64,000 nt of DNA from Escherichia coli (lineage in GTDB: Bacteria > Pseudomonadota > Gammaproteobacteria > Enterobacterales > Enterobacteriaceae), in the NCBI RefSeq assembly GCF_017348835.2, contig NZ_CP071375.1; one strand, written 5' to 3'. The notes below the pieces were generated by a model. The model saw only the letters and a list, made by a program, of their open reading frames with translations. It was not told the DNA's origin and searched no databases. Numbering within the stretch: position 1 is the first letter of the stretch; each line of letters begins with the position of its first letter. Position numbers and translations under genes: made by a program. Below are positions 1,808-57,879 of the stretch, piece after piece.

Positions 1808-2875
1808 TTAACTGAACTTACTCTGCGCCCACATCACGCCGCTGGCATATTCTGGCGGCAGCAGCGGGATTAAGGCTTCCAGCGTCGCGGTCAGACGCGA
1901 TGTGTCGCTGTCGGTTAAATTCAGATGCCCCACTTTACGCCCCGGACGGACTTCTTTGTCGTACCAGTGCAGATGCACCAGCGGCAATTTCAGCCAGTCA
2001 TAATTCACATCGCTACCAATCAGGTTGATCATCACCGACGGACTATTCACTATCGGTTGCGGTAACGGCAGATCGGTAATCGCCCGCAGATGCAGCTCAA
2101 ACTGGCTGATGCTGGCACCGTTTTGTGTCCAGTGACCGCTGTTATGCACACGCGGTGCCAGTTCGTTGATCAACAGACCTTGCGGGGTGACAAAACACTC
2201 CATTGCCATCACGCCTACATAGCCCAGCTCCTGCATAATCGCCGAAAGCATCTCTTCGGCTTGCGCTTGCTGCTGCGCATTGGCCTGCGGGAAAGCGACG
2301 CTGGTGCGCAAAATACCGTCCTGATGCAGGTTATGCGTCAGCGGATAAAACACGGTGCTGCCATCAAAGCCGCGCGCGCCAACCAGCGACACTTCACCAG
2401 AGAAGTTTATGCCCTGCTCGACAATACATTCGCCGTAGCATTCAGCCGGTAACTGCTCGGTTTCATCGGCGCGTAAACGCCATTGACCGCGTCCGTCATA
2501 GCCACCAGTGCGACGCTTAACAATCGCCAGCTCACCTAAACGATCAAACACCGCAGGCCACTCGTTGCGTCCGGCAAGTAACTGCCACGGTGCAGTCGGC
2601 AGGTGGAGCTTATCGAAAAGCTGCTTCTGAGTCAGACGGTCAGCAATAATCGGGAACACATCGCGGTTCACAAAGGCCGGATGGCGCGCCAGCTCGCGGG
2701 TTAATGCGGTTTCCGGCCAGCGTTCTATCTCAGCGGTAATCACGCTTTGTTGAAAAGGCACCGCCGCCGGTTCAGCGTCCAGCCCGACTGGCCAGACAGC
2801 AATGCCTAACGGTTCGCCTGCCTGACGCAGCATACGGCCTAACTGCCCGTTACCGAGGACGCAAACCTGTTTCAT
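1808..2875 (-). CDS. purK: N5-carboxyaminoimidazole ribonucleotide synthase
   Basis: 355-aa ORF, ATP-grasp fold sequence matching PurK; overlaps purE stop. Confidence 0.95.
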
Positions 2876-3381
2876 GCCGCACCTCGCGGGTCCGGGTTTT
2901 CCAGCACTTCGTCGGTCTGGGCTTTGCGCCAGTCATTCAGACGCTGGTGCAGCTCTTTATCATGAGTCGCAAGAATTTGTGCTGCCAGTAACGCCGCGTT
3001 TGCCGCGCCAGCTTTACCAATCGCCAGCGTACCCACCGGAATGCCGCGCGGCATTTGTACGATGGAGTAGAGGCTATCGATACCGCTCAGTGCGGCGCTC
3101 TGTACTGGCACGCCCAGCACTGGCACCAGCGTTTTGGCGGCAATCATACCCGGCAGGTGCGCTGCGCCGCCTGCGCCCGCAATAATCACCTGATAACCGT
3201 TCTCTTCGGCGCTTTCGGCGAAGCTGAACAGTTTATCGGGGGTGCGGTGAGCAGAAACCACTTCAACGTGGTGCGGGACATTCAGGATTTCGAAGATTTC
3301 GGCGGCGAACTGCATGGTAGCCCAGTCGCTTTTGGACCCCATCACGATGGCGACACGCGCCGGATTATTGCGGGAAGACAT
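2872..3381 (-). CDS. purE: N5-CAIR mutase
   Basis: 169-aa product starting [22 protein letters not shown]-track ORF is longer but the internal ATG at 3379-3381 gives the canonical length. Confidence 0.95.
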
Positions 3382-3498
3382 GCGTCTTAAAACTCCTGTG
3401 GTGCACAACTCTCGGCTTTAGAGGGCACAGAGAATAGCACGGAAAGAGAGCAAGGAAAACGGTTGCGTGGCTGTGAAATCAGCAAAGTTGTGGGTTTT

Positions 3499-4221
3499 TT
3501 AAAACGGAAAATGAATCAGCTCAACGTCATCCGCCGTGACTTTCACCATCGAACCTTCCGTATGCCAGGCACCCAGTACCACGCGTAAAGCAGGTTGCTG
3601 GTTGGCGATAAGTTCATGTACCGCCGGGCGATGGGTATGCCCGTGAATCAGCCATTGCACCTGATGTTTTTCCATCGCACTGACCACCGCGTTTTGGTTA
3701 ACGTCCATGATCGCCAGCGATTTACTGCTGTTGGCTTCTTTACTGTTCGCGCGCATTCGCGCGGCAATGCGTTTGCGCACAAACAACGGCAGAGCGAGGA
3801 ATAGCGTTTGCAGCCAGGGTTTGTGGACTTTGGCGCGAAAAGCCTGATAACCCGCGTCATCGGTGCACAGCGTGTCGCCATGCATAATCAACACCCGACG
3901 ACCATAAAGTTCGAGCACCTTTTCTTCCGGCAATAACGTCATGCCGCTTTCACGGGCAAAGCGTTTGCCGAGCAGAAAATCACGGTTGCCATGAATGAAA
4001 TAACAGGGAACGCCGGAATCGGACACCGCTTTGATCGCTGCCGCCATCTGGCGATGGAGTGGGTTGGGATCGTCGTCGCCAATCCACGCTTCAAACAGAT
4101 CGCCAAGAATATACAGCGCGTCGGCATTGCGGGCTTCCCCCGCTAAAAAACGCAGAAAACCGGCGGTGATCGCCGGTTCTTCCACGCAGAGATGAAGATC
4201 TGCAATAAAGAGTGTCGCCAC
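3499..4221 (-). CDS. lpxH: UDP-2,3-diacylglucosamine pyrophosphatase
   Basis: 240-aa calcineurin-like phosphoesterase (DLHL, GDLFE, GNRD, HGHTH motifs). Confidence 0.9.
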
Positions 4222-4223
4222 GA

Positions 4224-4718
4224 TTACTCGCTAACGGTCACGCTTTCAATGATAACGTCTTCTTTTGGCACGTCCTGGTGCATACCGCTACGACCGGTTG
4301 CAACACCTTTGATTTTGTCTACCACGTCCATGCCTTCAACCACTTCAGCAAACACGCAGTAGCCCCAACCTTGCAGGCTTTCGCCAGAGAAGTTCAGGAA
4401 GTCGTTATCAACCACGTTGATGAAGAACTGTGCAGTTGCAGAGTGCGGAGCCTGAGTACGGGCCATTGCCAGCGTACCACGGGTATTTTTCAGGCCGTTG
4501 TTGGCTTCGTTTTTGATCGGTTCTTTGGTGGCTTTTTGTTTCATGCCCGGTTCAAAACCGCCGCCCTGAATCATAAAGCCGTTGATAACACGGTGGAAAA
4601 TGGTGTTGTTGTAAAAACCTTCGCGGCAGTAGTCCAGGAAGTTTTTAACTGTTTCAGGTGCTTTATCGTCAAAAGTTTTGATGACAATATCGCCGTGATT
4701 GGTGTGGAAAGTAACCAT
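4224..4718 (-). CDS. ppiB: peptidyl-prolyl cis-trans isomerase B (cyclophilin)
   Basis: 164-aa cyclophilin sequence ([27 protein letters not shown]...). Confidence 0.95.
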
Positions 4719-4891
4719 TTTTGCATCCTGTTCCGTTTGATTGGTGCTTCAACCCGGTTCGGGTCATATATAGGGTGGTGTTATAGCATAACCGCACGAT
4801 CGGATCATCACGCAATGTATGCTGATTCGCGCGGGAAATATGGGTATTATACGCAACTCAATTACCCACACATGTCTAAACGGAATCTTCG

Positions 4892-6277
4892 ATGCTAAAA
4901 ATCTTCAATACTCTGACACGCCAAAAAGAGGAATTTAAGCCTATTCACGCCGGGGAAGTCGGCATGTACGTGTGTGGAATCACCGTTTACGATCTCTGTC
5001 ATATCGGTCACGGGCGTACCTTTGTTGCTTTTGACGTGGTTGCGCGCTATCTGCGTTTCCTCGGCTATAAACTGAAGTATGTGCGCAACATTACCGATAT
5101 CGACGACAAAATCATCAAACGCGCCAATGAAAATGGCGAAAGCTTTGTGGCGCTGGTGGATCGCATGATCGCCGAAATGCACAAAGATTTTGATGCTTTG
5201 AACATTTTGCGCCCGGATATGGAGCCGCGCGCGACGCACCATATCGCAGAAATTATTGAACTCACTGAACAACTGATCGCCAAAGGTCACGCTTATGTGG
5301 CGGACAACGGCGACGTGATGTTCGACGTCCCGACCGATCCGACTTATGGCGTGCTGTCGCGCCAGGATCTCGACCAGCTGCAGGCAGGCGCGCGCGTTGA
5401 CGTGGTCGATGACAAACGCAACCCGATGGACTTCGTTCTGTGGAAGATGTCGAAAGAGGGCGAACCGAGCTGGCCGTCTCCGTGGGGCGCGGGCCGTCCT
5501 GGCTGGCACATTGAATGTTCGGCAATGAACTGCAAGCAGCTGGGTAACCACTTTGATATCCACGGCGGCGGTTCTGACCTGATGTTCCCACACCACGAAA
5601 ACGAAATCGCTCAGTCCACCTGTGCCCATGATGGTCAGTATGTGAACTACTGGATGCACTCCGGGATGGTGATGGTTGATCGCGAGAAGATGTCCAAATC
5701 GCTGGGTAACTTCTTCACCGTGCGTGATGTGCTGAAATACTACGACGCGGAAACCGTGCGTTACTTCCTGATGTCGGGACACTATCGCAGCCAGCTGAAC
5801 TACAGCGAAGAGAACCTGAAGCAGGCGCGTGCGGCGCTGGAGCGTCTCTACACTGCCCTGCGCGGCACAGACAAAACCGTTGCGCCTGCCGGTGGCGAAG
5901 CGTTTGAAGCGCGCTTTATTGAAGCGATGGACGACGATTTCAACACCCCGGAAGCCTATTCCGTACTGTTTGATATGGCGCGTGAAGTAAACCGTCTGAA
6001 AGCAGAAGATATGGCAGCGGCGAATGCAATGGCATCTCACCTGCGTAAACTTTCCGCTGTACTGGGCCTGCTGGAGCAAGAGCCGGAAGCGTTCCTGCAA
6101 AGCGGTGCGCAGGCAGACGACAGCGAAGTGGCTGAGATTGAAGCGTTAATTCAACAGCGTCTGGATGCCCGTAAAGCGAAAGACTGGGCGGCGGCAGATG
6201 CGGCGCGTGACCGTCTTAACGAGATGGGGATCGTGCTGGAAGATGGCCCGCAAGGGACCACCTGGCGTCGTAAGTAA
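4892..6277 (+). CDS. cysS: cysteine--tRNA ligase
   Basis: 461-aa class I aaRS with HIGH (CHIGHGR) and KMSKS motifs. Confidence 0.95.
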
Positions 6278-6288
6278 TTGCGCTGTTG

Positions 6289-6312
6289 CCGGATGCGAGT
6301 TTTCGCATCCGG
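6289..6312. terminator. hairpin between convergent cysS and ybcI (possible bidirectional terminator)
   Basis: Stem ccggatgcg / cgcatccgg with 6-nt loop, right after the cysS stop; no strong U-tract. Confidence 0.35.
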
Positions 6313-6834
6313 TTATCGCCTGCGCCACCACAATATTCCCATCAGCACCATCCCCGGCAACCACACCCACATCAATTCAGAAATAATCACCTGATGCCCG
6401 TACGGCGTGCTGTAACGAGACAATGCAAACGGCGCGACTTTGATCACCTGCCAGGGAGCGAAAAAGCGTTCATCTGACCACGGCCACAGCCAGCCAACGC
6501 CTTTACCGCCAGTGGTTACCGAATCCAGCAAGCTGTGCGATAGCAACGAGACGGTTAAAAACAGCCAGCAGCGAATCAGCCCAGCCCTGAACCATCGACG
6601 TCCAATCAGCACACATAACAGCGGGACAACAAACGCAAACACCAGCGAATGGGTAAACCCGCGATGACCAAAAACATTGCCGTAAGCAACGCCAAATTTA
6701 AACGACAATACGTCGGCATCGGGCAGCATCGCCAGGACGATTCCGGCAAATAACAGACGCGGCGGGATGATTATCGAACCCAACCCTAAACCAATGCATA
6801 GGGGAACGGCGGCGTGCGTAATAACGGTTGGCAT
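6313..6834 (-). CDS. ybcI: inner membrane protein, DUF457 family
   Basis: 173-aa hydrophobic ORF; position between cysS and ybcJ. Confidence 0.8.
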   Translation of the reverse strand: MPTVITHAAVPLCIGLGLGSIIIPPRLLFAGIVLAMLPDADVLSFKFGVAYGNVFGHRGFTHSLVFAFVVPLLCVLIGRRWFRAGLIRCWLFLTVSLLSHSLLDSVTTGGKGVGWLWPWSDERFFAPWQVIKVAPFALSRYSTPYGHQVIISELMWVWLPGMVLMGILWWRRR

Positions 6835-15010: not shown

Positions 15011-15087
15011 GCGCCCTTAGCTCAGTTGGATAGAGCAACGACCTTCTAAGTCGTGGGCCGCAGGTTCGAATCCTGCAGGGCGCGCCA
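15011..15087 (+). tRNA. argU: tRNA-Arg (anticodon UCU)
   Basis: 77-nt sequence gcgcccttagctcagttggatagagcaacgaccttctaagtcgtgggccgcaggttcgaatcctgcagggcgcgcca with TCT anticodon and GTTCGAATC T-loop. Confidence 0.95.
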
Positions 15088-15089
15088 TT
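15043..15089. repeat. attL core (3' part of argU)
   Basis: cttctaagtcgtgggccgcaggttcgaatcctgcagggcgcgcca(tt) is repeated exactly at 58302-58348. Confidence 0.8.
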
Positions 15090-15102: not shown

Positions 15103-16265
15103 TTACGCCTTCTTTATATCCTCCATAATTCCACAGTGGGACATATTTGGGACATGATCACCAAAAATGTCGTCTATTTTCCTTGCATGCTCTGTCAAAT
15201 GATTAGGCGCAAGGTGAGCATACCTACGAACCATTTCTATGGACTCCCATCCGCCCATTTCCTGAAGCACAGATAATGGGACGCCTGACTGGATCAGCCA
15301 GCTTGCCCAGGTGTGTCTGAGGTCATGGAAACGGAAATCTTCAATTCCTGCACGACGACAAGCTGATAGCCATGATGTCTTGCTGTCGATGCGCATCTTC
15401 CTGACCGCAGGCGTTGATGTTCCATCTGCTCGCTTAGCCGCCTTGGTATGTACAAACACCCATTTGTGATGCTTGCCTATTTGATCACGCAACACTTTAC
15501 AGGCGGTATCGTTCAGCGCCACACCAATGGCGCGGTTTGATTTGCTCTCTTCTGGATTCACCCAGGCAACTCGTCGCTGCATGTCGATTTGTTGCCATTC
15601 CAGATTTATGATGTTCGACTTTCTCAGACCAGTTGCCAGCGCAAACTTGACGACAGATTTCAGTGGTTCGGGGCACTCATCAATAAGGCGTTTTGCTTCC
15701 TCCTTTTCCAGCCATCTGACTCGCTTGTTTCTGACCGCTGGTATCTTGATGACAGGCGCTTTTTCCAGCCACTTCCAGTCGCGTTCTGCAGCACGGAGAA
15801 TGGCCTTTATCATGGCAAGATGCTTTGCCTTTGTCTGAGTTGATACTGGCTTTGGTTCATAAACAGGCGGTTCTTTACCTTTCCTGATGGCGGCCTGAAC
15901 TTTCTGTTTCCATATTTCTTTCGTCTTTCTGTTATGCATTCTGCTTACAGCAGAGTAAATCTTTGCCTCCGAGATATCTTTAAGCCTTATACCCTCAAAA
16001 TGTTCAAGCCAGAACTCAATCCGGCTTTTATCTGAATCGAGAGATTTTTATCAGCTTTTTCCTCAAGCCATCTTAGGCAGGCCTCTTCAAAAGTGACATC
16101 AGGTAAATCCCCTAGCTTTTCTACTCGCCAGAGTTCTGCTTTTCGCTTGTCGTGCAACTCCTGAGCTTGCCGCTTGTCCTTTGTGCCAAGAGATTCCTTA
16201 ATTCGTTTCCCGCCCGGGAGCGAATACGAGGCATACCATATTTCATTTCTGCGGAAGAGTGACAT
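15103..16265 (-). pseudogene. int: tyrosine integrase disrupted by a 1-nt frameshift
   Basis: N-terminal ORF (16265 to 15987) and catalytic C-terminal ORF (15939 to 15103, with R..HxxR..Y motifs) are in different frames; C-terminal frame is open upstream to a TAA at 16048-16050; frames meet at T5 homopolymer 16045-16049. Confidence 0.8.
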
Positions 16266-31528: not shown

Positions 31529-35209
<3,681 letters not shown>

Positions 35210-50441: not shown

Positions 50442-53402
50442 ATGGCAGTAAAGATTTCAGGTGTACTGAAAGACGGCACAGGAAAACCGGTACAGAACTG
50501 CATAATCCAGCTGAAAGCAAAACGTAACAGCACCACGGTGGTGGTGAACACGCTGGCCTCAGAAAATCCGGATGAAGCCGGGCGTTACAGCATGGACGTT
50601 GAGTACGGTCAGTACAGCGTTATTCTGTTGGTGGAGGGATTCCCGCCGTCACATGCCGGGACCATCACCGTGTATGAAGATTCTCAACCCGGTACGCTGA
50701 ATGATTTTCTCGGTGCCATGACGGAGGATGATGCCCGTCCGGAGGCACTGCGTCGTTTTGAACTGATGGTGGAAGAGGTGGCGCGTAACGCGTCCGTGGT
50801 GGCACAGAACACGGCAGCCGCAAAGAAGTCAGCCAGTGATGCCAGCACATCTGCCAGTGAGGCGGCAACCCGTGCGACTGATGCTGCAGATTCAGCACGT
50901 GCAGCCAGCACGTCAGCCGGACAGGCCGCGTCGTCGGCTCAGTCAGCGTCTTCCAGCGCAGGAACGGCATCAGCAAAAGCCTCTGAGGCATCAAAAAGTG
51001 CTGCCGCTGCAGAGTCCTCAAAAAGCGCGGCGGCTACCAGTGCCGGTGCGGCGAAAACGTCAGAAACGAATGCGGCAGCGTCAGAACAATCAGCCGCCAC
51101 TTCTGCATCCACCGCGACCACGAAAGCGTCAGAAGCTGCCACCTCAGCCCGGGATGCGGCGGCCTCAAAAGAGGCGGCAAAATCATCAGAAACGAGCGCA
51201 GCCTCGAGCGCCAGTAATGCCGCTTCCTCGGCAACGGCGGCAGGAAATTCCGCGAAGGCGGCAAAGACGTCTGAGACAAACGCTAAGTCCTCTGAAACGG
51301 CAGCAGCACAGAGTGCCTCCGCAGGCGCAGACTCAAAAACAGCGGCTGCATCATCTGCCAGCGCCGCGTCAACAAGTGCCGGGCAGGCCTCAGCCAGTGC
51401 CACCGCTGCCGGAAAGTCGGCAGAAAGTGCCGCATCGTCTGCTTCAACAGCCACAACGAAGGCTGGCGAAGCCACTGAACAGGCCAGCGCAGCAGCGAGT
51501 TCTGCTTCCGCAGCGAAGACATCCGAAACGAACGCGAAAGCGTCGGAAACCAGCGCAGAATCCTCAAAAACTGCTGCCGCATCGTCAGCCAGTTCGGCGG
51601 CGTCATCGGCATCATCTGCGTCTGCTTCAAAAGATGAGGCGACCAGACAAGCGTCAGCAGCGAAGAGCAGCGCCACGACGGCATCCACGAAGGCGACAGA
51701 GGCAGCTGGCAGTGCGACGGCGGCAGCTCAGAGCAAAAGTACGGCGGAATCCGCGGCAACGCGCGCCGAGACAGCGGCAAAACGGGCAGAGGATATTGCA
51801 TCCGCCGTGGCGCTTGAAGATGCGAGCACGACGAAAAAGGGGATAGTACAGCTCAGCAGTGCGACTAACAGCACTTCCGAGTCACTGGCGGCAACGCCAA
51901 AAGCAGTTAAGTCCGCGTATGACCTGGCTAACGGGAAATACACCGCACAGGATGCAACGACAGCACAGAAAGGGATAGTTCAGCTCAGCAGCGCGACCAA
52001 CAGCACATCTGAAATGCTGGCGGCAACGCCAAAGTCGGTAAAGGCAGCCTATGACCTTGCTAACGGGAAATATACCGCTCAGGACGCTACGACAGCACAA
52101 AAAGGAATTATCCAGCTCAGTAGTGCAACCAACAGCGCATCTGAAACGCTTGCCGCGACACCGAAAGCAGTGAAAGCAGCTAATGATAATGCGAATGGTC
52201 GGGTACCTTCTGCCCGTAAGGTGAATGGTAAGGCGCTTTCAGCGGATATAACACTGACGCCGAAAGATATTGGTACGCTTAACTCAACAACAATGTCATT
52301 CAGCGGTGGTGCTGGTTGGTTCAAATTAGCAACGGTAACCATGCCACAGGCGAGTTCTGTTGTTTCAATTACGTTGATTGGTGGCGCGGGATTTAACGTG
52401 GGGTCACCTCAACAGGCAGGTATATCTGAACTTGTTTTGCGTGCAGGTAATGGTAATCCGAAGGGGATTACTGGTGCTTTATGGCAGCGCACATCGACAG
52501 GGTTTACAAATTTTGCCTGGGTCAATACATCTGGTGATACTTACGATATTTACGTTGCAATCGGAAATTATGCGACTGGTGTAAATATTCAATGGGATTA
52601 TACCAGTAATGCCAGCGTGACTATTCATACGTCACCAGCATATTCTGCTAATAAGCCGGAAGGGTTAACGGACGGTACAGTTTATTCACTCTATACGCCA
52701 TCAGAGCAGTTTTATCCGCCTGGCGCACCAATCCCGTGGCCATCAGATACCGTTCCGTCTGGTTATGCCCTGATGCAGGGGCAGACTTTTGACAAATCTG
52801 CATACCCGAAACTTGCAGCCGCTTATCCGTCAGGCGTGATCCCTGATATGCGTGGCTGGACGATTAAGGGCAAACCCGCCAGTGGTCGTGCCGTATTGTC
52901 TCAGGAACAGGACGGCATTAAATCGCACACCCACAGCGCCAGCGCATCCAGTACGGATTTGGGGACGAAAACCACATCGTCGTTTGATTACGGCACTAAA
53001 TCCACGAATAACACCGGGGCTCATACGCACAGTCTGAGCGGCTCTACAAGCTCGGCCGGAGCACACTCGCACGTTGATGGTCGCAGGTTTAATACAAGCA
53101 CTTTTAAAGACACCTATCAGTATGGTTCTACAGCTGTCGGAAGTAACTCATACCAGGTACAAGGGGCGGTTGGTCTGGGCATTGGCACGATGGCGAATAC
53201 GAACTCTGCTGGCGCGCATACCCACTCACTGTCCGGCACTGCTGCAAGCGCAGGTGCACACGCACATACTGTCGGTATTGGTGCTCATACGCACTCCGTT
53301 GCGATTGGCTCACATGGACACACCATCACCGTTAACGCTGCTGGTAACGCGGAAAACACCGTCAAAAACATCGCATTTAACTATATTGTGAGGCTTGCAT
53401 AA
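50442..53402 (+). CDS. stf: side tail fibre protein (Stf)
   Basis: 986-aa; conserved N-terminus, long Ala/Ser-rich low-complexity region, three tandem 40-aa repeats, C-terminal HxH repeats. Confidence 0.85.
51835..52194 (+). repeat. 3 x 120-nt tandem in-frame repeats within stf
   Basis: Repeat protein unit [15 protein letters not shown](S/M)LAATPK(A/S)VK(S/A)[18 protein letters not shown]. Confidence 0.7.
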
Positions 53403-53986
53403 TGGCATTCAGAATGAGTGAACAAGCACGGACCATAAAAATTTATAATCTGCTGGCCGGAACTAATGAATTTATTGGTGAAGGTGATGCATATATTCCG
53501 CCTCATACAGGTCTGCCAGCAAACAGTACCGATATTGCACCACCAGATATTCCTGCTGGCTTTGTGGCTGTTTTCAACAGTGATGAGGCATCGTGGCATC
53601 TCGTTGAAGACCATCTGGGTAAAACGGTTTATGACGTAGCGTCAGGGGACGAGTTATTTATTTCTGAACTCGGTCCGTTACCGGAAAATGTTACCTGGTT
53701 ATCGCCGGAAGGGGAGTTTCAGAAGTGGAACGGCACAGCCTGGGTGAAAGATGCAGAAGCAGAAAAACTGTTCCGGATCCGAGAGGCGGAAGAAATAAAA
53801 AACAGCCTGATGCAGGTAGCCAGTGAGCATATTGCGCCACTTCAGGATGCTGTAGATCTGGAAATCGCAACGGAGGAAGAAACCTCATTGTTGGAAGCCT
53901 GGAAAAAGTATCGGGTGTTGCTGAACCGTGTTGATACATCAACTGCACCTGATATTGAGTGGCCTACGAATCCTGTCAGGGAGTAA
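53402..53986 (+). CDS. tfa: tail fibre assembly protein (Tfa)
   Basis: 194-aa, start overlaps the stf stop. Confidence 0.85.
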
Positions 53987-54040: not shown

Positions 54041-54709
54041 CTATTTTTTCCCTGAAGCGGAAAACATTACTACAGTACCTTGAACCTTGGTTTTAACATT
54101 CTCGAAATGCTCTGAGAGTATATGTGTTAAGCCTTCTTCGGAATCTTTTGTGTTTGAAAAGATGCCTTTCTGATTGTAAATGCGCATCAGTTTTTGACCG
54201 AAGCTATTGTGCACAACTCCATCGCCAAGAATTGTGGCTCCGTATAGAGTTCCATCGTCAGTTAAGGCCTGCGCCGCATTGCGTATTACACAGCTTTTTG
54301 TAGATATATTTCCAGGCAGGCAGTGAAGAAGGTAAAACATGGAAATGGAATCAAATTGACCATGTAACGCCGCGGGATAAGGTTCAAAAACATCATGGCT
54401 AATTTTATGTTTAATTTTTGATTCCCCAGCCCTTGTAGATGCCGCGTTCAGGCTAGCTTCGTTCAAATCCATTAAAGATATCAGACTACTCTCAGGTACG
54501 TGAGTAAGGTAAAACCCAGTTCCAACACCAATATCCAGATGGTTGTTACCTAAATGTTCCAGAAAGTGTGGAAGAAGGTGTTCCTTTGTAGGACATCCCC
54601 ATGCAAGCCGATTTGATACTCCCAAAACCCACCAGTCATAAAGCTTTAGGGTAAGTGGTGTGTAAATTTTAGCCCCATCATCTGTGTTTTTTTTCATTAA
54701 TTTCACCAT
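54041..54709 (-). CDS. class I SAM-dependent methyltransferase (YbcY-like)
   Basis: 222-aa; LDIGVGTGF SAM-binding motif I; convergent with tfa. Confidence 0.65.
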   Translation of the reverse strand: MVKLMKKNTDDGAKIYTPLTLKLYDWWVLGVSNRLAWGCPTKEHLLPHFLEHLGNNHLDIGVGTGFYLTHVPESSLISLMDLNEASLNAASTRAGESKIKHKISHDVFEPYPAALHGQFDSISMFYLLHCLPGNISTKSCVIRNAAQALTDDGTLYGATILGDGVVHNSFGQKLMRIYNQKGIFSNTKDSEEGLTHILSEHFENVKTKVQGTVVMFSASGKK

Positions 54710-54765: not shown

Positions 54766-55071
54766 ATGCTGCCGCAGCATAGCGATATTGAAATAGCCTG
54801 GTATGCTTCGATACAACAGGAGCCGAATGGCTGGAAGACCGTCACCACACAGTTCTACATCCAGGAATTCAGTGAGTATATTGCGCCACTGCAGGATGCT
54901 GTAGATCTGGAAATCGCAACGGAGGAAGAAAGATCGTTGCTGGAGGCATGGAATAAATATCGGGTATTGTTGAATCGAGTTGATACATCAGTAGCTCTGG
55001 GTATGAAGCTGTTTGTAACTCATGTTACAGTAACAGTCATTACTATCTCGAAGGTGCAAAATGTATATTGA
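54766..55071 (+). pseudogene. tail fibre assembly gene remnant (tfaX-like)
   Basis: 101-aa ORF whose residues 39-75 repeat the C-terminal Tfa segment [35 protein letters not shown], then diverges. Confidence 0.6.
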
Positions 55072-55254
55072 TTTGATATTTTATAAATTTACTTCGAATC
55101 TGGCACGTCAACTTTTGATTAAAGTAATATCAGTTTTCGGCGAAAAAAGGACCGTGTACATGAGACGATTTCATACAATAATAACAAAAATATGAATATG
55201 CTCCCAATGCAATATATGTTTTGCATTGGGAGCAAATAGCGGAATATTTTGAAA

Positions 55255-56739
55255 TTATTGTATTTCTGCTTCAGAATTTCCTGGGCAGTATATATTTTCT
55301 ATTTTTTGTGGAGTGATCAGGTGATGTACAACTGCTTTATCTACACATAAATTAACTCCGGTGAGAGCTAATGTATGCCCATCACCATTTATTGTTAGTA
55401 ACGGGCTGGAAAATTTCTCTGCCATCTTACGGGCATTAATCCAGGGCGTTGTTGGGTCGTATTTGTGTGCTATAAACAGTAAACCAGAGGGCAGAACAGT
55501 ATTTTTCAGGCGAGTTTTGTTCAGGTCGCTATGTATTGGCCATAATTCACAAAAATCAGGTGAATCGGAACGTCCATTGTCAAAGTTAATAGCCGGGAAG
55601 GCATTCGCAAGAGCGTCTTTTCGGGATTTTCGCTCTTCTGGTGTTAATTGCTCATCCCCCTGATCTACACAGAGGATTACCCCCGAAGCATCGCTTGACT
55701 CTTCTGAGGCTATCGGAGCACTGAGCGCAGTTTCAATTTCATTACTGACAATCCCCTGAGAGAACTGGCGTATGGCAGTTGCAAGGGTTGGCCATGATGA
55801 ACGCCATAGCAGAAGGTCTGTTGTTAATGATATGAGTTCATCTGAAGATATATTTTCTCTCTTACTGTCTAATAAAGGTTTGTGATGTAATTTTGATAAT
55901 AGCTCATGGAACTGAGTTATTGCCTTATCTCTGTCTGAAGAAAGCGGGCAACTTTTTGTACGCGCACACCAGGATGCAAAGCGATCAAACGTTTCCTGAT
56001 AACTCTGTGCCTGTTTGAGTTGCCATGTGAAGTTGTCCTCCAGGTCATCGATATCGACGACTCCATCAAGAACGATAGATCTTACGTTGTAGGGAAAACG
56101 TTCTGCATATAAGGCTGCAATTTGAGTTCCATACGAATACGCCACGGCTGTCAGTTGTTTATCCCCCAAGGCTTGCCTAATACGATCAATATCGTATACA
56201 GCCTCGTTAGAGCCGATATGGCGAATGACTTCGGCTCCGGTATTATGGATACAGGCATTAATTTTATTTAATACTTGTTGCTTTTCGGTTATGTTTTCCT
56301 GAGTCTCTGTATCTGATTGCCGGCAGTTTATTGTCGGAGTGGACTGTCCGACGCCTCGAGGATCAAATCCAATAATATCCCATGACTCACGAAGATTTGT
56401 GACTGGCCAGTCAAAGTTAATATAAGGATTTATGCCTGGTAACCCGGGACCACCACTTATTATCAGGATACTTCCTTTATGCTTGCTTTTTGCCGGCAAT
56501 TTTGTCAACGCTAGTTTGACTTGTGATTTTTTTTCATAAGAAGCATCTCCGCCTGTGTCTGTATATTTTAATGGAACAGACAAATAACCACATAGTAAGT
56601 CAGGAGACGGTTTTTCCTCACCAAACCAGTGGTTGAATTGACTGGCCATACAGGATTGCCACTGTATCTGCTGGGCAGATACGGTTACTGGTAGAAGTAA
56701 CGTTAAAACAACTTTGAAATGAGTAATTATTTTTCGCAT
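55255..56739 (-). CDS. secreted alpha/beta-hydrolase-fold protein, probably S33-type peptidase/esterase
   Basis: 494-aa; signal-peptide-like N-terminus (MRKIITHFKVVLTLLLPVTVSAQQ), GGPG segment, nucleophile-elbow-like AYSYG; AT-rich; hairpin ctcccaatgca...tgcattgggag downstream. Confidence 0.65.
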   Translation of the reverse strand: MRKIITHFKVVLTLLLPVTVSAQQIQWQSCMASQFNHWFGEEKPSPDLLCGYLSVPLKYTDTGGDASYEKKSQVKLALTKLPAKSKHKGSILIISGGPGLPGINPYINFDWPVTNLRESWDIIGFDPRGVGQSTPTINCRQSDTETQENITEKQQVLNKINACIHNTGAEVIRHIGSNEAVYDIDRIRQALGDKQLTAVAYSYGTQIAALYAERFPYNVRSIVLDGVVDIDDLEDNFTWQLKQAQSYQETFDRFASWCARTKSCPLSSDRDKAITQFHELLSKLHHKPLLDSKRENISSDELISLTTDLLLWRSSWPTLATAIRQFSQGIVSNEIETALSAPIASEESSDASGVILCVDQGDEQLTPEERKSRKDALANAFPAINFDNGRSDSPDFCELWPIHSDLNKTRLKNTVLPSGLLFIAHKYDPTTPWINARKMAEKFSSPLLTINGDGHTLALTGVNLCVDKAVVHHLITPQKIENIYCPGNSEAEIQ

Positions 56740-56925
56740 TGTGTCTCTGAATATCGGAATAAAGATAAGATTTGAATATATTGAGGTCTTGTGTTGCGGT
56801 AAGAGATTACACGTTATGACATAGGTTAAATGCTTACAAAATTAGTGGATATTGCCTACTTGTAACTGTAAACAAATTCCCCGGGGTTATACAATACCAC
56901 CGGGGAGAAAATCTGGTTAACTTCG

Positions 56926-57879
56926 TTAAAAGGTGTACTTAAGACCAGCAGTAGTGATGAAGTTATAGTTTTCTATGCCTGCACCATTTTTGCTGTAGTC
57001 TGAAGTGTTATCATTGTGATCATAAAGTGAAGTATTACCTTTTTTATTCGTAACCCGATTCCATGCGCCTTCAACATAAACTTTTGCGTTAGGTGTTACG
57101 TAATAACCTGCATTGACTGCAACAGAATAGTAATTTTGGTCTTTGACTTTACTGCGATAAGTGATTCTTTTTCCTGGGTCATAGTGCTCATCGTTATCAG
57201 ATGCTTCCACCCAGCCGCTGTATTTAAATGTGCCACCTAGCTCAAAATCTTCATAACGATAACTTCCAGTCAAGCCAATGTAGGGCATTTTAAAACGTTG
57301 TTTGTAGCCGATTGCTCTTTCTCCATTCGGGAAGGAGCCGATATCATCTCTGAATCCCTCCTCAGAACTGTAGATATAGGAACCACCTCTGGCTGTAAAG
57401 CTATAACGGCTTTCCTGATATCCGGCCATGAGTCCCAGGCGGTAATTGGGTTCGTTGAGGAGCCAGCCTTTGATATTCAGATCAAATTCGTTGGCATAAT
57501 TGAGTTGTGTATCAGGGTGCCTACTTTCATCTGTCCAGGTTCCGGGGTTACTGGAATCCATCCAGTCCTGATCGACCATATTGCCACCTCGGCTGCCGAG
57601 AGTAGTCCAGCCCGCAGCCCCAATAGATATCTGGGGCATCAAATCCCAATTAATTGCACCTTTAATAATTGCAGCGTTATTGAATTTCCAGTCGAGTTGA
57701 CTGACTTTTCGGCCTCCTTCTTCAGCTAGATAAACGCGCTCTTTTGTTTTTCCGCTCAGAGTTCCAAGACTAATGTCCGCATTTATGTTGTCAGGAGTAA
57801 ACGATATAGTCTCGGTAGAAGCAAAAGAGCTGATCGCAATAGGGGTTGTCAGAACTATTCCCAGAAGTTTCGCCCGCAT
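56926..57879 (-). CDS. ompT: omptin outer membrane protease
   Basis: 317-aa matching E. coli OmpT as recalled (MRAKLLGIVLTTPIAISSFA ... TAGLKYTF). Confidence 0.95.
   Translation of the reverse strand: MRAKLLGIVLTTPIAISSFASTETISFTPDNINADISLGTLSGKTKERVYLAEEGGRKVSQLDWKFNNAAIIKGAINWDLMPQISIGAAGWTTLGSRGGNMVDQDWMDSSNPGTWTDESRHPDTQLNYANEFDLNIKGWLLNEPNYRLGLMAGYQESRYSFTARGGSYIYSSEEGFRDDIGSFPNGERAIGYKQRFKMPYIGLTGSYRYEDFELGGTFKYSGWVEASDNDEHYDPGKRITYRSKVKDQNYYSVAVNAGYYVTPNAKVYVEGAWNRVTNKKGNTSLYDHNDNTSDYSKNGAGIENYNFITTAGLKYTF

Follow-up and report, generated by a model that had tools for sequence, protein, structure and literature searches.

Which protein is encoded immediately downstream of the omptin gene ompT, in a slot where K-12 carries a different gene, and whether it makes the locus one of two proteases, are the questions raised by positions 55072-56925 of a 64,000-nucleotide stretch of Escherichia coli DNA (the window; contig NZ_CP071375.1 of RefSeq assembly GCF_017348835.2). 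A first-pass annotation, made from the sequence alone, had proposed that a secreted S33-type alpha/beta-hydrolase of low guanine-plus-cytosine (GC) content is carried there as prophage cargo, in the slot that holds the regulator gene appY in K-12, and that with OmpT it would form a two-protease envelope locus; the outcomes it named as contrary to this proposal were the lack of a catalytic triad on alignment and a common core gene at the same position. The span extends from after the stop codon of a tail-fibre-assembly (tfa) remnant (55071) to before the stop codon of ompT (56926), and comprises one gene together with both of its spacers: in a six-frame list of open reading frames (ORFs) the sole long ORF here is the minus-strand frame of 494 amino acids, with an ATG start, that the annotation had placed between the remnant and ompT. 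Our overall reading, to which we assign a probability of roughly 0.78, is that the product of this gene is a serine hydrolase of the Tap/Hip1 family, exported by Sec, stabilised by disulfides and soluble in the periplasm, probably a peptidase with ester side activity, and that the gene is carried as phage cargo in an old omptin cassette. There is direct support for the gene itself, its family, catalytic residues and export signal, its location in prophage and phage genomes, its distribution, the purifying selection acting on it and the detection of the protein in O157.

Family, export and expression of the hydrolase

In Pfam the encoded protein (hereafter the hydrolase) matches Abhydrolase_1 (PF00561, E value 9.3e-34) over residues 91-460; towards the C-terminus, residues 386-479 match the TAP-like domain Abhydrolase_4 (PF08386, 1.2e-13), and its best sequence match among solved structures is Hip1 of Mycobacterium tuberculosis (E 4e-51), with residues 21-475 of the hydrolase aligned to chain residues 5-468. 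Within the paired motifs AYSYGT/GYSYGT, YDPTTP/HDPATP and GDGHT/GTQHT (hydrolase/Hip1), Ser202, Asp428 and His455 align with the catalytic triad of Hip1, Ser228, Asp463 and His490 (triad and protease activity, PMC4022732). Gly97, of the GGPG motif, and Tyr203 align with Gly110 and Tyr229, which have oxyanion-hole roles in Hip1 (PMC13041806), and Thr431 aligns with Thr466. The GGPG and AYSYG motifs already noticed in the first-pass annotation are indeed present, at residues 96-99 and 200-204, and the alignment supplies the Ser-Asp-His triad in which an alpha/beta-hydrolase assignment could be checked. Across 33 homologues, which reach down to 27% identity and include sequences from Nocardia and Mycobacterium, Ser202, Tyr203, Gly204, Thr205, Asp428, Thr431, His455 and Gly97-Pro98-Gly99 are invariant (33 of 33), and each of ten cysteines (30, 50, 139, 163, 258, 264, 357, 397, 465 and 485) is either invariant or at least 90% conserved. 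At least nine of these ten align with cysteines of Hip1, for which five disulfides are predicted (PMC4022732), and five pairs of cysteines, matching Hip1, point to a compartment that is oxidising.

An AlphaFold2 model built from the homologue alignment (mean predicted local distance difference test score, pLDDT, 88.7; predicted template modelling score, pTM, 0.89) displays an alternation of strands and helices, with low confidence confined to residues 1-20 (pLDDT 48-55) and the C-terminal tip. When the model was compared with the PDB using Foldseek, the top matches were six Hip1 entries (best E 3e-33; template modelling score, TM, 0.72-0.80), followed by TnmK1 and TnmK2 (TM 0.73-0.77), and more than 600 alpha/beta-hydrolase entries were matched at E<=1e-3. 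Every sequence and fold property of the Tap/Hip1 clade that could be tested was found, and alignment and model together place the protein in this clade of the MEROPS S33 alpha/beta-hydrolases, with its predicted active-site residues intact; the S33-type assignment made at first pass is thereby borne out by the Pfam, Hip1 sequence and fold matches alike. Proline iminopeptidase (TIGR01249), the prolyl aminopeptidase that is the S33 type enzyme, was considered and rejected. The likeness is local to the nucleophile elbow (residues 170-263 only; E 5e-9, with a score of 35.7 bits where the curated cut-off is 259.75; PDB entries 1QTR and 1AZW, E ~1e-3), whereas the hydrolase is ~180 residues longer, has another lid and gives a TM of about 0.35. 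An NCBIfam search returned no equivalog, just prolyl-aminopeptidase models far under their cut-off.

Homology to Hip1 (Rv2224c, CaeA; PDB 5UGQ, 7SFM, 8E5W and 9MD7) extends over the full length, at 26-27% identity in the structural alignment, and takes in the helical-lid fold, the Ser-Asp-His triad, the GGPG/Tyr oxyanion hole, the Thr that follows the Asp, the cysteines and export, the last being predicted for the hydrolase. The two differ in that the hydrolase belongs to a Gram-negative host, is phage- or plasmid-borne and has a plain Sec signal peptide; Hip1 is envelope-associated, whereas an orthologue of the hydrolase was recovered in a soluble fraction of low relative molecular mass (Mr); and Hip1 cleaves GroEL2, whereas the hydrolase has no known substrate. 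With Tap, SlpD and SlpE of Streptomyces lividans (MEROPS S33; the source of PF08386) the hydrolase shares an Abhydrolase_1 core and the PF08386 domain. Identity between Hip1 and the three enzymes is 30-38% (PMC4022732), which puts Tap, SlpD, SlpE, Hip1 and the hydrolase in one clade, the hydrolase being linked to it via Hip1 and not by direct comparison; SlpD and SlpE are mycelium-associated, whereas the hydrolase has no lipobox. TnmK1 and TnmK2 of tiancimycin biosynthesis (PDB 8E18, deposited as 'Secreted hydrolase', and 8G5T) resemble the hydrolase in fold, but at 18-22% identity, and are actinomycete gene-cluster enzymes, no such cluster being present at the hydrolase locus.

The N-terminus, MRKIITHFKVVLTLLLPVTVSA followed by QQ, has the features of a Sec signal peptide, namely two basic residues, a hydrophobic core (Kyte-Doolittle hydropathy up to 2.6 over 11 residues) and Val-Ser-Ala at positions -3 to -1, and a signal-like end, TVSA followed by (Q/R)Q, is retained in four diverged paralogues. 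A shorter protein of 464 amino acids, starting at Met31, is given in the RefSeq record of phage 2G7b (NC_049954.1, 8091-9485) and in the PHROG 20134 profile. Other records have the 494-residue form, and a start at Met31 would drop the signal peptide, Trp27 and Cys30. Since Trp27 and Cys30 are nearly invariant among homologues and the TVSA N-terminus recurs in four paralogues, we take the long start to be the correct one.

Expression in lysogens is established by published detection of Z1930, the 99.5%-identical orthologue, the data coming from O157:H7 strain 86-24 and not from the strain sequenced here. In the shotgun proteome of 86-24, Z1930 was detected in every listed lysate sample (PMC3210124 Tables S2 and S7) at about one tenth of the abundance of OmpT (PMC3210124). 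On size-exclusion fractionation it was found in the low-Mr soluble fraction (F3) in 11 of 11 replicates, in the middle fractions in few and in the high-Mr fractions in none (PMC3210124), as expected for a soluble monomer of ~53 kDa, and the same study predicted its location as 'PP or Ex' (PMC3210124). A soluble periplasmic location is our best guess. The term 'secreted', used in the first-pass annotation, is therefore apt for export across the inner membrane, which the signal features support, but finds no support beyond that membrane.

Phage cargo and the omptin-hydrolase cassette

The only transfer RNA gene in the window, located with ARAGORN, is argU (tRNA-Arg(TCT), 15011-15087), the 3' part of which recurs as an exact 47-bp repeat; attP-region sequence from 2G7b, a temperate phage, aligns over each copy, so that these attachment sites delimit a prophage from ~15.04 to 58.35 kb, enclosing both the hydrolase gene and ompT. 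Of the proposal that the cargo lies beside ompT at the right end of the prophage, the low-GC cargo near the end stands, but ompT itself is inside the element, with attR beyond it. A protein search of deposited phage genomes found the hydrolase at 99.2-99.8% identity in eleven temperate coliphage records (PhiR26_1, PhiR30_1, Turner, 2G7b (two records), ev243 (two records), PhiR49_1 and its star variant, PhiR29_1 and PhiR29_2), for several of which the listed host is K-12, E. coli C or ECOR13. The gene order in PhiR26_1 and 2G7b is tail fibre, tfa, methyltransferase, tfa remnant, hydrolase, ompT, att, int. The integrase gene of the prophage in the window (15103-16265, minus strand) is 99.5% identical to int of 2G7b and lacks one A at int nucleotide 217, near 16049; this deletion shifts the frame after ~72 codons, so the prophage is probably unable to excise with its own integrase.

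The hydrolase gene has a GC content of 0.422 and a third-codon-position GC content (GC3) of 0.352, visibly below those of the flanking lambda genes, as had been remarked at first pass: the tail genes lie at 55-59%, gene J has 0.564 (GC3 0.669) and the tail fibre 0.547 (0.492), the GC3 of J and H together spans 0.66-0.67, and overall GC is 0.528 in the prophage and 0.514 in the window. The neighbouring cargo is equally AT-rich (ompT 0.435, GC3 0.406; the S-adenosylmethionine (SAM)-dependent methyltransferase 0.408, GC3 0.359), so that low GC marks a three-gene block and not the hydrolase gene alone. The hairpin that follows the hydrolase gene folds at -24.3 kcal/mol (z = -6.8), a value reached by none of 200 shuffled sequences, and the one that follows ompT at -19.8 kcal/mol (z = -2.1). 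An Rfam scan of both spacers gave no RNA element, the matches being at chance level apart from those inside the tfa copies, and a 'mir-450' match was rejected as the hydrolase terminator hairpin itself. The attachment-site boundaries, the eleven phage records, the GC3 of 0.35 against 0.67 in J and the strong hairpin, its likely terminator, together point to moron-like status: the gene is true phage cargo, in the position of the lambda b region, and not a structural or replication gene. It resembles the lambda morons lom and bor, and appY of DLP12, in its site between tail fibre and att, in a GC content unlike that of the backbone, in having a likely terminator of its own, in expression by the lysogen and in varying between prophages. 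In contrast to lom and bor, which are outer-membrane or lipoprotein factors, and to appY, a regulator, the hydrolase is a predicted enzyme, its gene being paired with ompT in a cassette of two.

Of 5426 complete E. coli genomes surveyed, 1253 (23%) contain the 1854-bp span, which is at least 99% identical in 1212 records and among the matches is always annotated 'alpha/beta hydrolase'; carriers include O157:H7, O55:H7, O145 and O111 strains, and in strain E2865, with the same annotation, the whole neighbourhood is identical to the window. ompT is present in 3094 of the genomes, 40% of these having the hydrolase, and the hydrolase-ompT junction is unbroken in 1233 of the ~1253 genomes that carry the hydrolase. 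Measured against the contrary outcome of a common core gene, the gene is common, yet accessory. Nor does the novelty implied at first pass hold: whilst the reading of the hydrolase was right, the gene itself is not new, being catalogued as 'alpha/beta hydrolase' in RefSeq, as the putative protease Z1930 in EDL933 and as PHROG 20134 (unknown function).

Comparison of the slot between strains confirms that the hydrolase is an alternative to the appY cargo of K-12. In a blastn comparison with MG1655 the window is homologous as far as 54965 and again from 56922, a point four bases short of the ompT stop codon, with a 1602-bp appY segment in the place of positions 54966-56921; this segment is present in 852 genomes. 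In Nissle 1917 and the bloodstream isolate GN06098 the methyltransferase gene and ompT have nothing between them, and the B2 deletion allele still has ~160 bp of the spacer that separates ompT from the hydrolase gene, up to a point 25 bp short of the hydrolase start codon, which indicates that this 'empty' locus is derived from a hydrolase-type ancestor. Of the states of the slot, the one with the hydrolase seems to have come first, with the B2 deletion and the K-12 appY replacement arising later, and the only examples of hydrolase loss come from cryptic remnants (K-12, B2). Desloges et al. (PMC6854850) described these three arrangements around ompT in uropathogenic E. coli; for isolate cystitis 6, section 3.5 of their paper names 'ymcE, a putative cold shock gene', at a distance of 186 bp downstream of ompT. 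As this spacing is that of the ompT-hydrolase spacer, their 'ymcE' is probably the hydrolase gene misnamed.

Linkage to an omptin extends beyond the prophage. A tblastn search identified ~170 E. coli plasmids with a hydrolase copy at 76-80% identity, those inspected being IncF, and in plasmid ZYB62-2 and the classical F plasmid ompP is immediately followed by this copy, both genes being read in one direction. In pCys-11, an IncF plasmid with iro genes, a block of ~91% identical DNA contains an OmpT homologue (~90%) and, after it, a hydrolase at 94.9% identity, and two more variants in assemblies (82% and 78% identity) lie directly after a 315-residue omptin. Over these five cassettes (ten pairs) the pairwise identities of omptin and hydrolase correlate (r = 0.85); SGGPG, AYSYGT, YDPTTP, GDGHT and at least ten cysteines are retained in all five, as is a CCCCGG...CCGGGG hairpin 3' of the omptin gene. 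Between the phage and ompP-linked hydrolases the ratio of nonsynonymous to synonymous substitution rates (dN/dS) is 0.13 at a synonymous rate (dS) of 1.1, and between ompT and ompP it is 0.07.

The ompP-linked IncF paralogue (WP_072145210.1, WP_001263868.1; 76-78% identity) has the same position and orientation after the omptin, the hairpin, the motifs and the cysteines; it differs in a 92-bp spacer (against 186 bp), a better Shine-Dalgarno sequence (GGAG) and another signal peptide sequence, and it is plasmid-borne, with RepFIB and autotransporter genes nearby. An association of ompP with cattle isolates has been reported (PMC10088187). In the F plasmid (NC_002483.1, record 32322-34861, locus 2323-4862) ompP is followed by a paralogue of 495 amino acids, and F+ or F' laboratory strains such as XL1-Blue would therefore have a hydrolase despite their chromosomal appY. 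By these sequence comparisons the cassette is one lineage, inherited as a unit and under purifying selection. Conserved linkage and purifying selection are compatible with a functional link between omptin and hydrolase and are not proof of it; nevertheless, the conserved and co-diverging cassette lends comparative support to the two-protease envelope locus that had been proposed. In the searchable literature we found no description of a recurrent omptin-hydrolase cassette, that of the F plasmid included.

Proposed catalytic role and alternative explanations

In the mechanism that we propose, the precursor would be exported by Sec and cleaved after Ala22, and the mature protein would fold in the periplasm with five disulfides. 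By homology to Hip1, His455 and Asp428 would act as a relay for nucleophilic attack by Ser202 on the scissile carbonyl, an oxyanion hole would be made by the main-chain NH groups of Gly97 and Tyr203, and a helical lid (~residues 230-410) may shape the substrate cleft. Activity would be directed at peptides or unfolded N-termini, in the style of tripeptidyl aminopeptidases or of Hip1, with ester side activity. Cooperation with OmpT, in which the hydrolase would finish off antimicrobial-peptide fragments made by the omptin, is possible; the grounds for such a downstream role are the conserved linkage and the known cleavage of antimicrobial peptides by OmpT, OmpP and ArlC. Periplasmic location, peptidase over esterase activity and this cooperation are what we infer from the evidence above. 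In a more ambitious form of the proposal the pair would be a two-compartment proteolytic module, the omptin cutting cationic antimicrobial peptides or a surface substrate and the periplasmic peptidase degrading the fragments or processing a needed envelope protein, an idea that we put forward tentatively and consider rather unlikely.

A number of points weigh against our overall reading. The signal peptide was called by rule-based inspection of its n-, h- and c-regions and by hydropathy, not by a dedicated predictor. A promoter scan found no consensus sigma-70 promoter in the 186-bp ompT-hydrolase spacer, and the ribosome-binding site (Shine-Dalgarno sequence) of the hydrolase is weak, so that read-through from ompT is possible. 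In the alignment, pocket residues Arg232, Ala465 and Lys469 of Hip1 correspond to Gln206, Thr430 and Ile434, and the specificity of Hip1 is accordingly not transferable to the hydrolase. The Tap/Hip1 family is catalytically versatile, TnmK1 and TnmK2, the next-best folds, being biosynthetic enzymes, and Hip1 itself, initially called a carboxylesterase, acts on p-nitrophenyl butyrate (PMC4022732). Homologues of ~50% identity with no omptin neighbour occur in Salmonella, on a Serratia plasmid, on a Budvicia chromosome and in a metagenome contig; the omptin link may thus reflect shared descent of one cassette in place of a functional requirement, and we do not claim an obligate partnership. Finally, no enzymatic, localisation or phenotype study of the hydrolase, or of any Gram-negative member, was found in the searchable literature; papers on the RpoS regulon and the rumen proteome have other CP-933X genes only.

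Some of these points would equally suit a protein of the same fold and export that acts on an ester (a lipid, lactone, acylated sugar or lipoprotein acyl group) as an envelope esterase, lipase or lactonase. The product name in the 2G7b and ev243 records is 'putative lactone hydrolase, alpha/beta fold family', Hip1 has the deposition name 'Carboxylesterase A' and cleaves the butyrate ester mentioned above (PMC4022732), and the lower-ranked fold matches include many esterases among alpha/beta-hydrolases with this triad. Against these indications, the nearest characterised relatives are proteases (Hip1 and, through Hip1, the tripeptidyl peptidases of Streptomyces), the hydrolase has the TAP-like C-terminal domain, and the residues corresponding to the peptide-backbone contacts of Hip1 inhibitors (Gly97, Tyr203 and Thr431) are invariant; a dedicated esterase is, in our judgement, unlikely, and we retain a peptidase with ester side activity as the preferred reading.

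We consider it improbable that the protein is a prophage anti-phage or superinfection-exclusion factor, for example one degrading incoming phage proteins in the periplasm. The cargo region between tail fibre and att in temperate phages often holds defence genes, and the hydrolase gene is located in such a region; the protein also matches PADLOC-DB model PDLC01094 (C3a206, 'TAP-like protein') at 3e-55 (186 bits, residues 21-487), and PADLOC mad2 is matched very weakly by the methyltransferase next to it (E 0.003). However, 186 bits is close to the level of the Hip1 match and so denotes similarity within the superfamily and not orthology, and the system to which model C3a206 belongs could not be traced. 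On non-phage IncF plasmids, and next to ompT variants investigated for antimicrobial-peptide cleavage, the gene is, moreover, just as conserved, and its neighbours, ompT and the methyltransferase, include no partner defence gene. A functionless hitch-hiker, retained only through linkage to ompT, would account for loss with no obvious cost in B2 (by deletion) and replacement by appY in K-12-like strains, and for a hydrolase with no known phenotype. It is hardly reconcilable with a dN/dS of 0.13 at dS 1.1 against the plasmid copy, with the retention of all catalytic residues and ten cysteines across five diverged cassettes, or with an ORF at least 99% identical in 1212 records and a protein made in O157, and these selection and expression data have largely refuted it already.

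Features of the locus and implications

Table 1. Coordinates in the window of the hydrolase gene, its coding landmarks and the elements that surround it.
Feature	Position	Strand	Basis or remark
Hydrolase coding sequence	55255..56739	-	Exported Tap/Hip1-family serine hydrolase, 494 amino acids; orthologue of EDL933 Z1930; RefSeq WP_001226384.1
Predicted Sec signal peptide, codons 1-22	56674..56739	-	MRKIITHFKVVLTLLLPVTVSA; predicted cleavage before Gln23; n/h/c inspection and hydropathy
GGPG motif, codons 96-99	56443..56454	-	Hip1 alignment; Gly97-Pro98-Gly99 invariant
Codons of Ser202 (predicted nucleophile, in AYSYGT) and Tyr203 (predicted second oxyanion-hole residue)	56131..56136	-	Align with Hip1 Ser228-Tyr229
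Codons 428-431 (D-P-T-T), with predicted catalytic Asp428 and Thr431	55447..55458	-	Align with Hip1 Asp463...Thr466
Codon of predicted catalytic His455 (in GDGHT)	55375..55377	-	Aligns with Hip1 His490; invariant
Perfect 14-bp hairpin, likely hydrolase terminator	55199..55234	-	21 nt past the stop codon; weak U-tract (UAUUCAUAU)
ompT-hydrolase spacer, 186 bp	56740..56925	-	GC hairpin at 56877-56907, directly 3' of ompT
ompT, omptin outer-membrane protease, upstream cassette partner	56926..57879	-	ORF and annotation of identical locus
Tail-fibre-assembly remnant (tfaX-like), 101 codons	54766..55071	+	Incomplete tfa in identical locus; homologous to K-12 tfaX
Class I SAM-dependent methyltransferase (ybcY, intact)	54041..54709	-	ORF, annotation, GC3 0.359; low-GC cargo block
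attL, within and just past argU	15043..15089	+	47-bp exact repeat
attR, exact 47-bp copy of the argU 3' part	58302..58348	+	Repeat of 15043-15089
Segment replacing the 1602-bp appY segment of K-12	54966..56921		1956 bp; blastn against MG1655
Stretch deleted in the B2-type locus	54796..56764		1969 bp; tfa remnant and entire hydrolase gene; blastn of Nissle locus

Two further ORFs that overlap or lie antisense to the hydrolase gene, at 55361-55663 (plus strand, 100 amino acids) and 55917-56069 (minus strand, 50 amino acids), were dismissed as lacking support. The methyltransferase gene ybcY is a pseudogene in K-12 and belongs to PHROG 2132 (unknown function). On the plus strand the Rfam family IS009 (RF02111) is matched at 53745-53943, in the 3' part of tfa, with 225 bits and above the gathering score, and again at 54789-54992, in the tfa remnant, with 107 bits and below it; both matches arise because the tfa 3' ends are duplicated, and give no evidence for a separate RNA gene. 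The side tail fibre (50442-53402, plus strand, 986 amino acids) has a low-complexity stretch rich in Ala, Ser and Thr at about residues 120-470, after which come three near-identical repeats of the form KGI(V/I)QLSSATNS..., and its gene has an AT skew of 0.3-0.4 at 50750-52250. Past attR, an insertion sequence of the IS3 family (IS629/IS1203-like) at 58674-59981 lies inside envY, with a 3-bp TAA target duplication, the inverted repeats TGAACCGCCCCGG and two ORFs, orfA (58726-59052) and orfB (59052-59939); envY is uninterrupted in K-12 and in strain E2865. As to the distant homologues, the one in Salmonella enterica (52% identical; contigs, 5001-6449) sits beside a Tn7-like module of TniQ, TniB and transposase, with a serralysin-type metalloprotease gene a few kb away, and that of the Serratia plasmid sits between insertion sequences.

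The analysis indicates that O157:H7 makes a protein which, by alignment and model, is structurally close to Hip1, the virulence protease of M. tuberculosis, and that the hydrolase gene adjoins every studied E. coli omptin type that was checked, ompP of the F plasmid included, the surroundings of arlC not being covered. The history of the slot, with its hydrolase, B2 deletion and appY states, should be useful when OmpT activity is compared between pathotypes. If the hydrolase and the omptin do act as a two-compartment module, the hydrolase would add measurably to peptide resistance or host colonisation in enterohaemorrhagic and extraintestinal pathogenic E. coli and in carriers of F plasmids; in a variant of this proposal it would, like Hip1, modify a bacterial protein that shapes host innate responses. 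The hydrolase gene is in itself an ordinary accessory gene and no surprise, and it offers a testable lead, namely an expressed Hip1 homologue in enterohaemorrhagic E. coli and on F-type plasmids.

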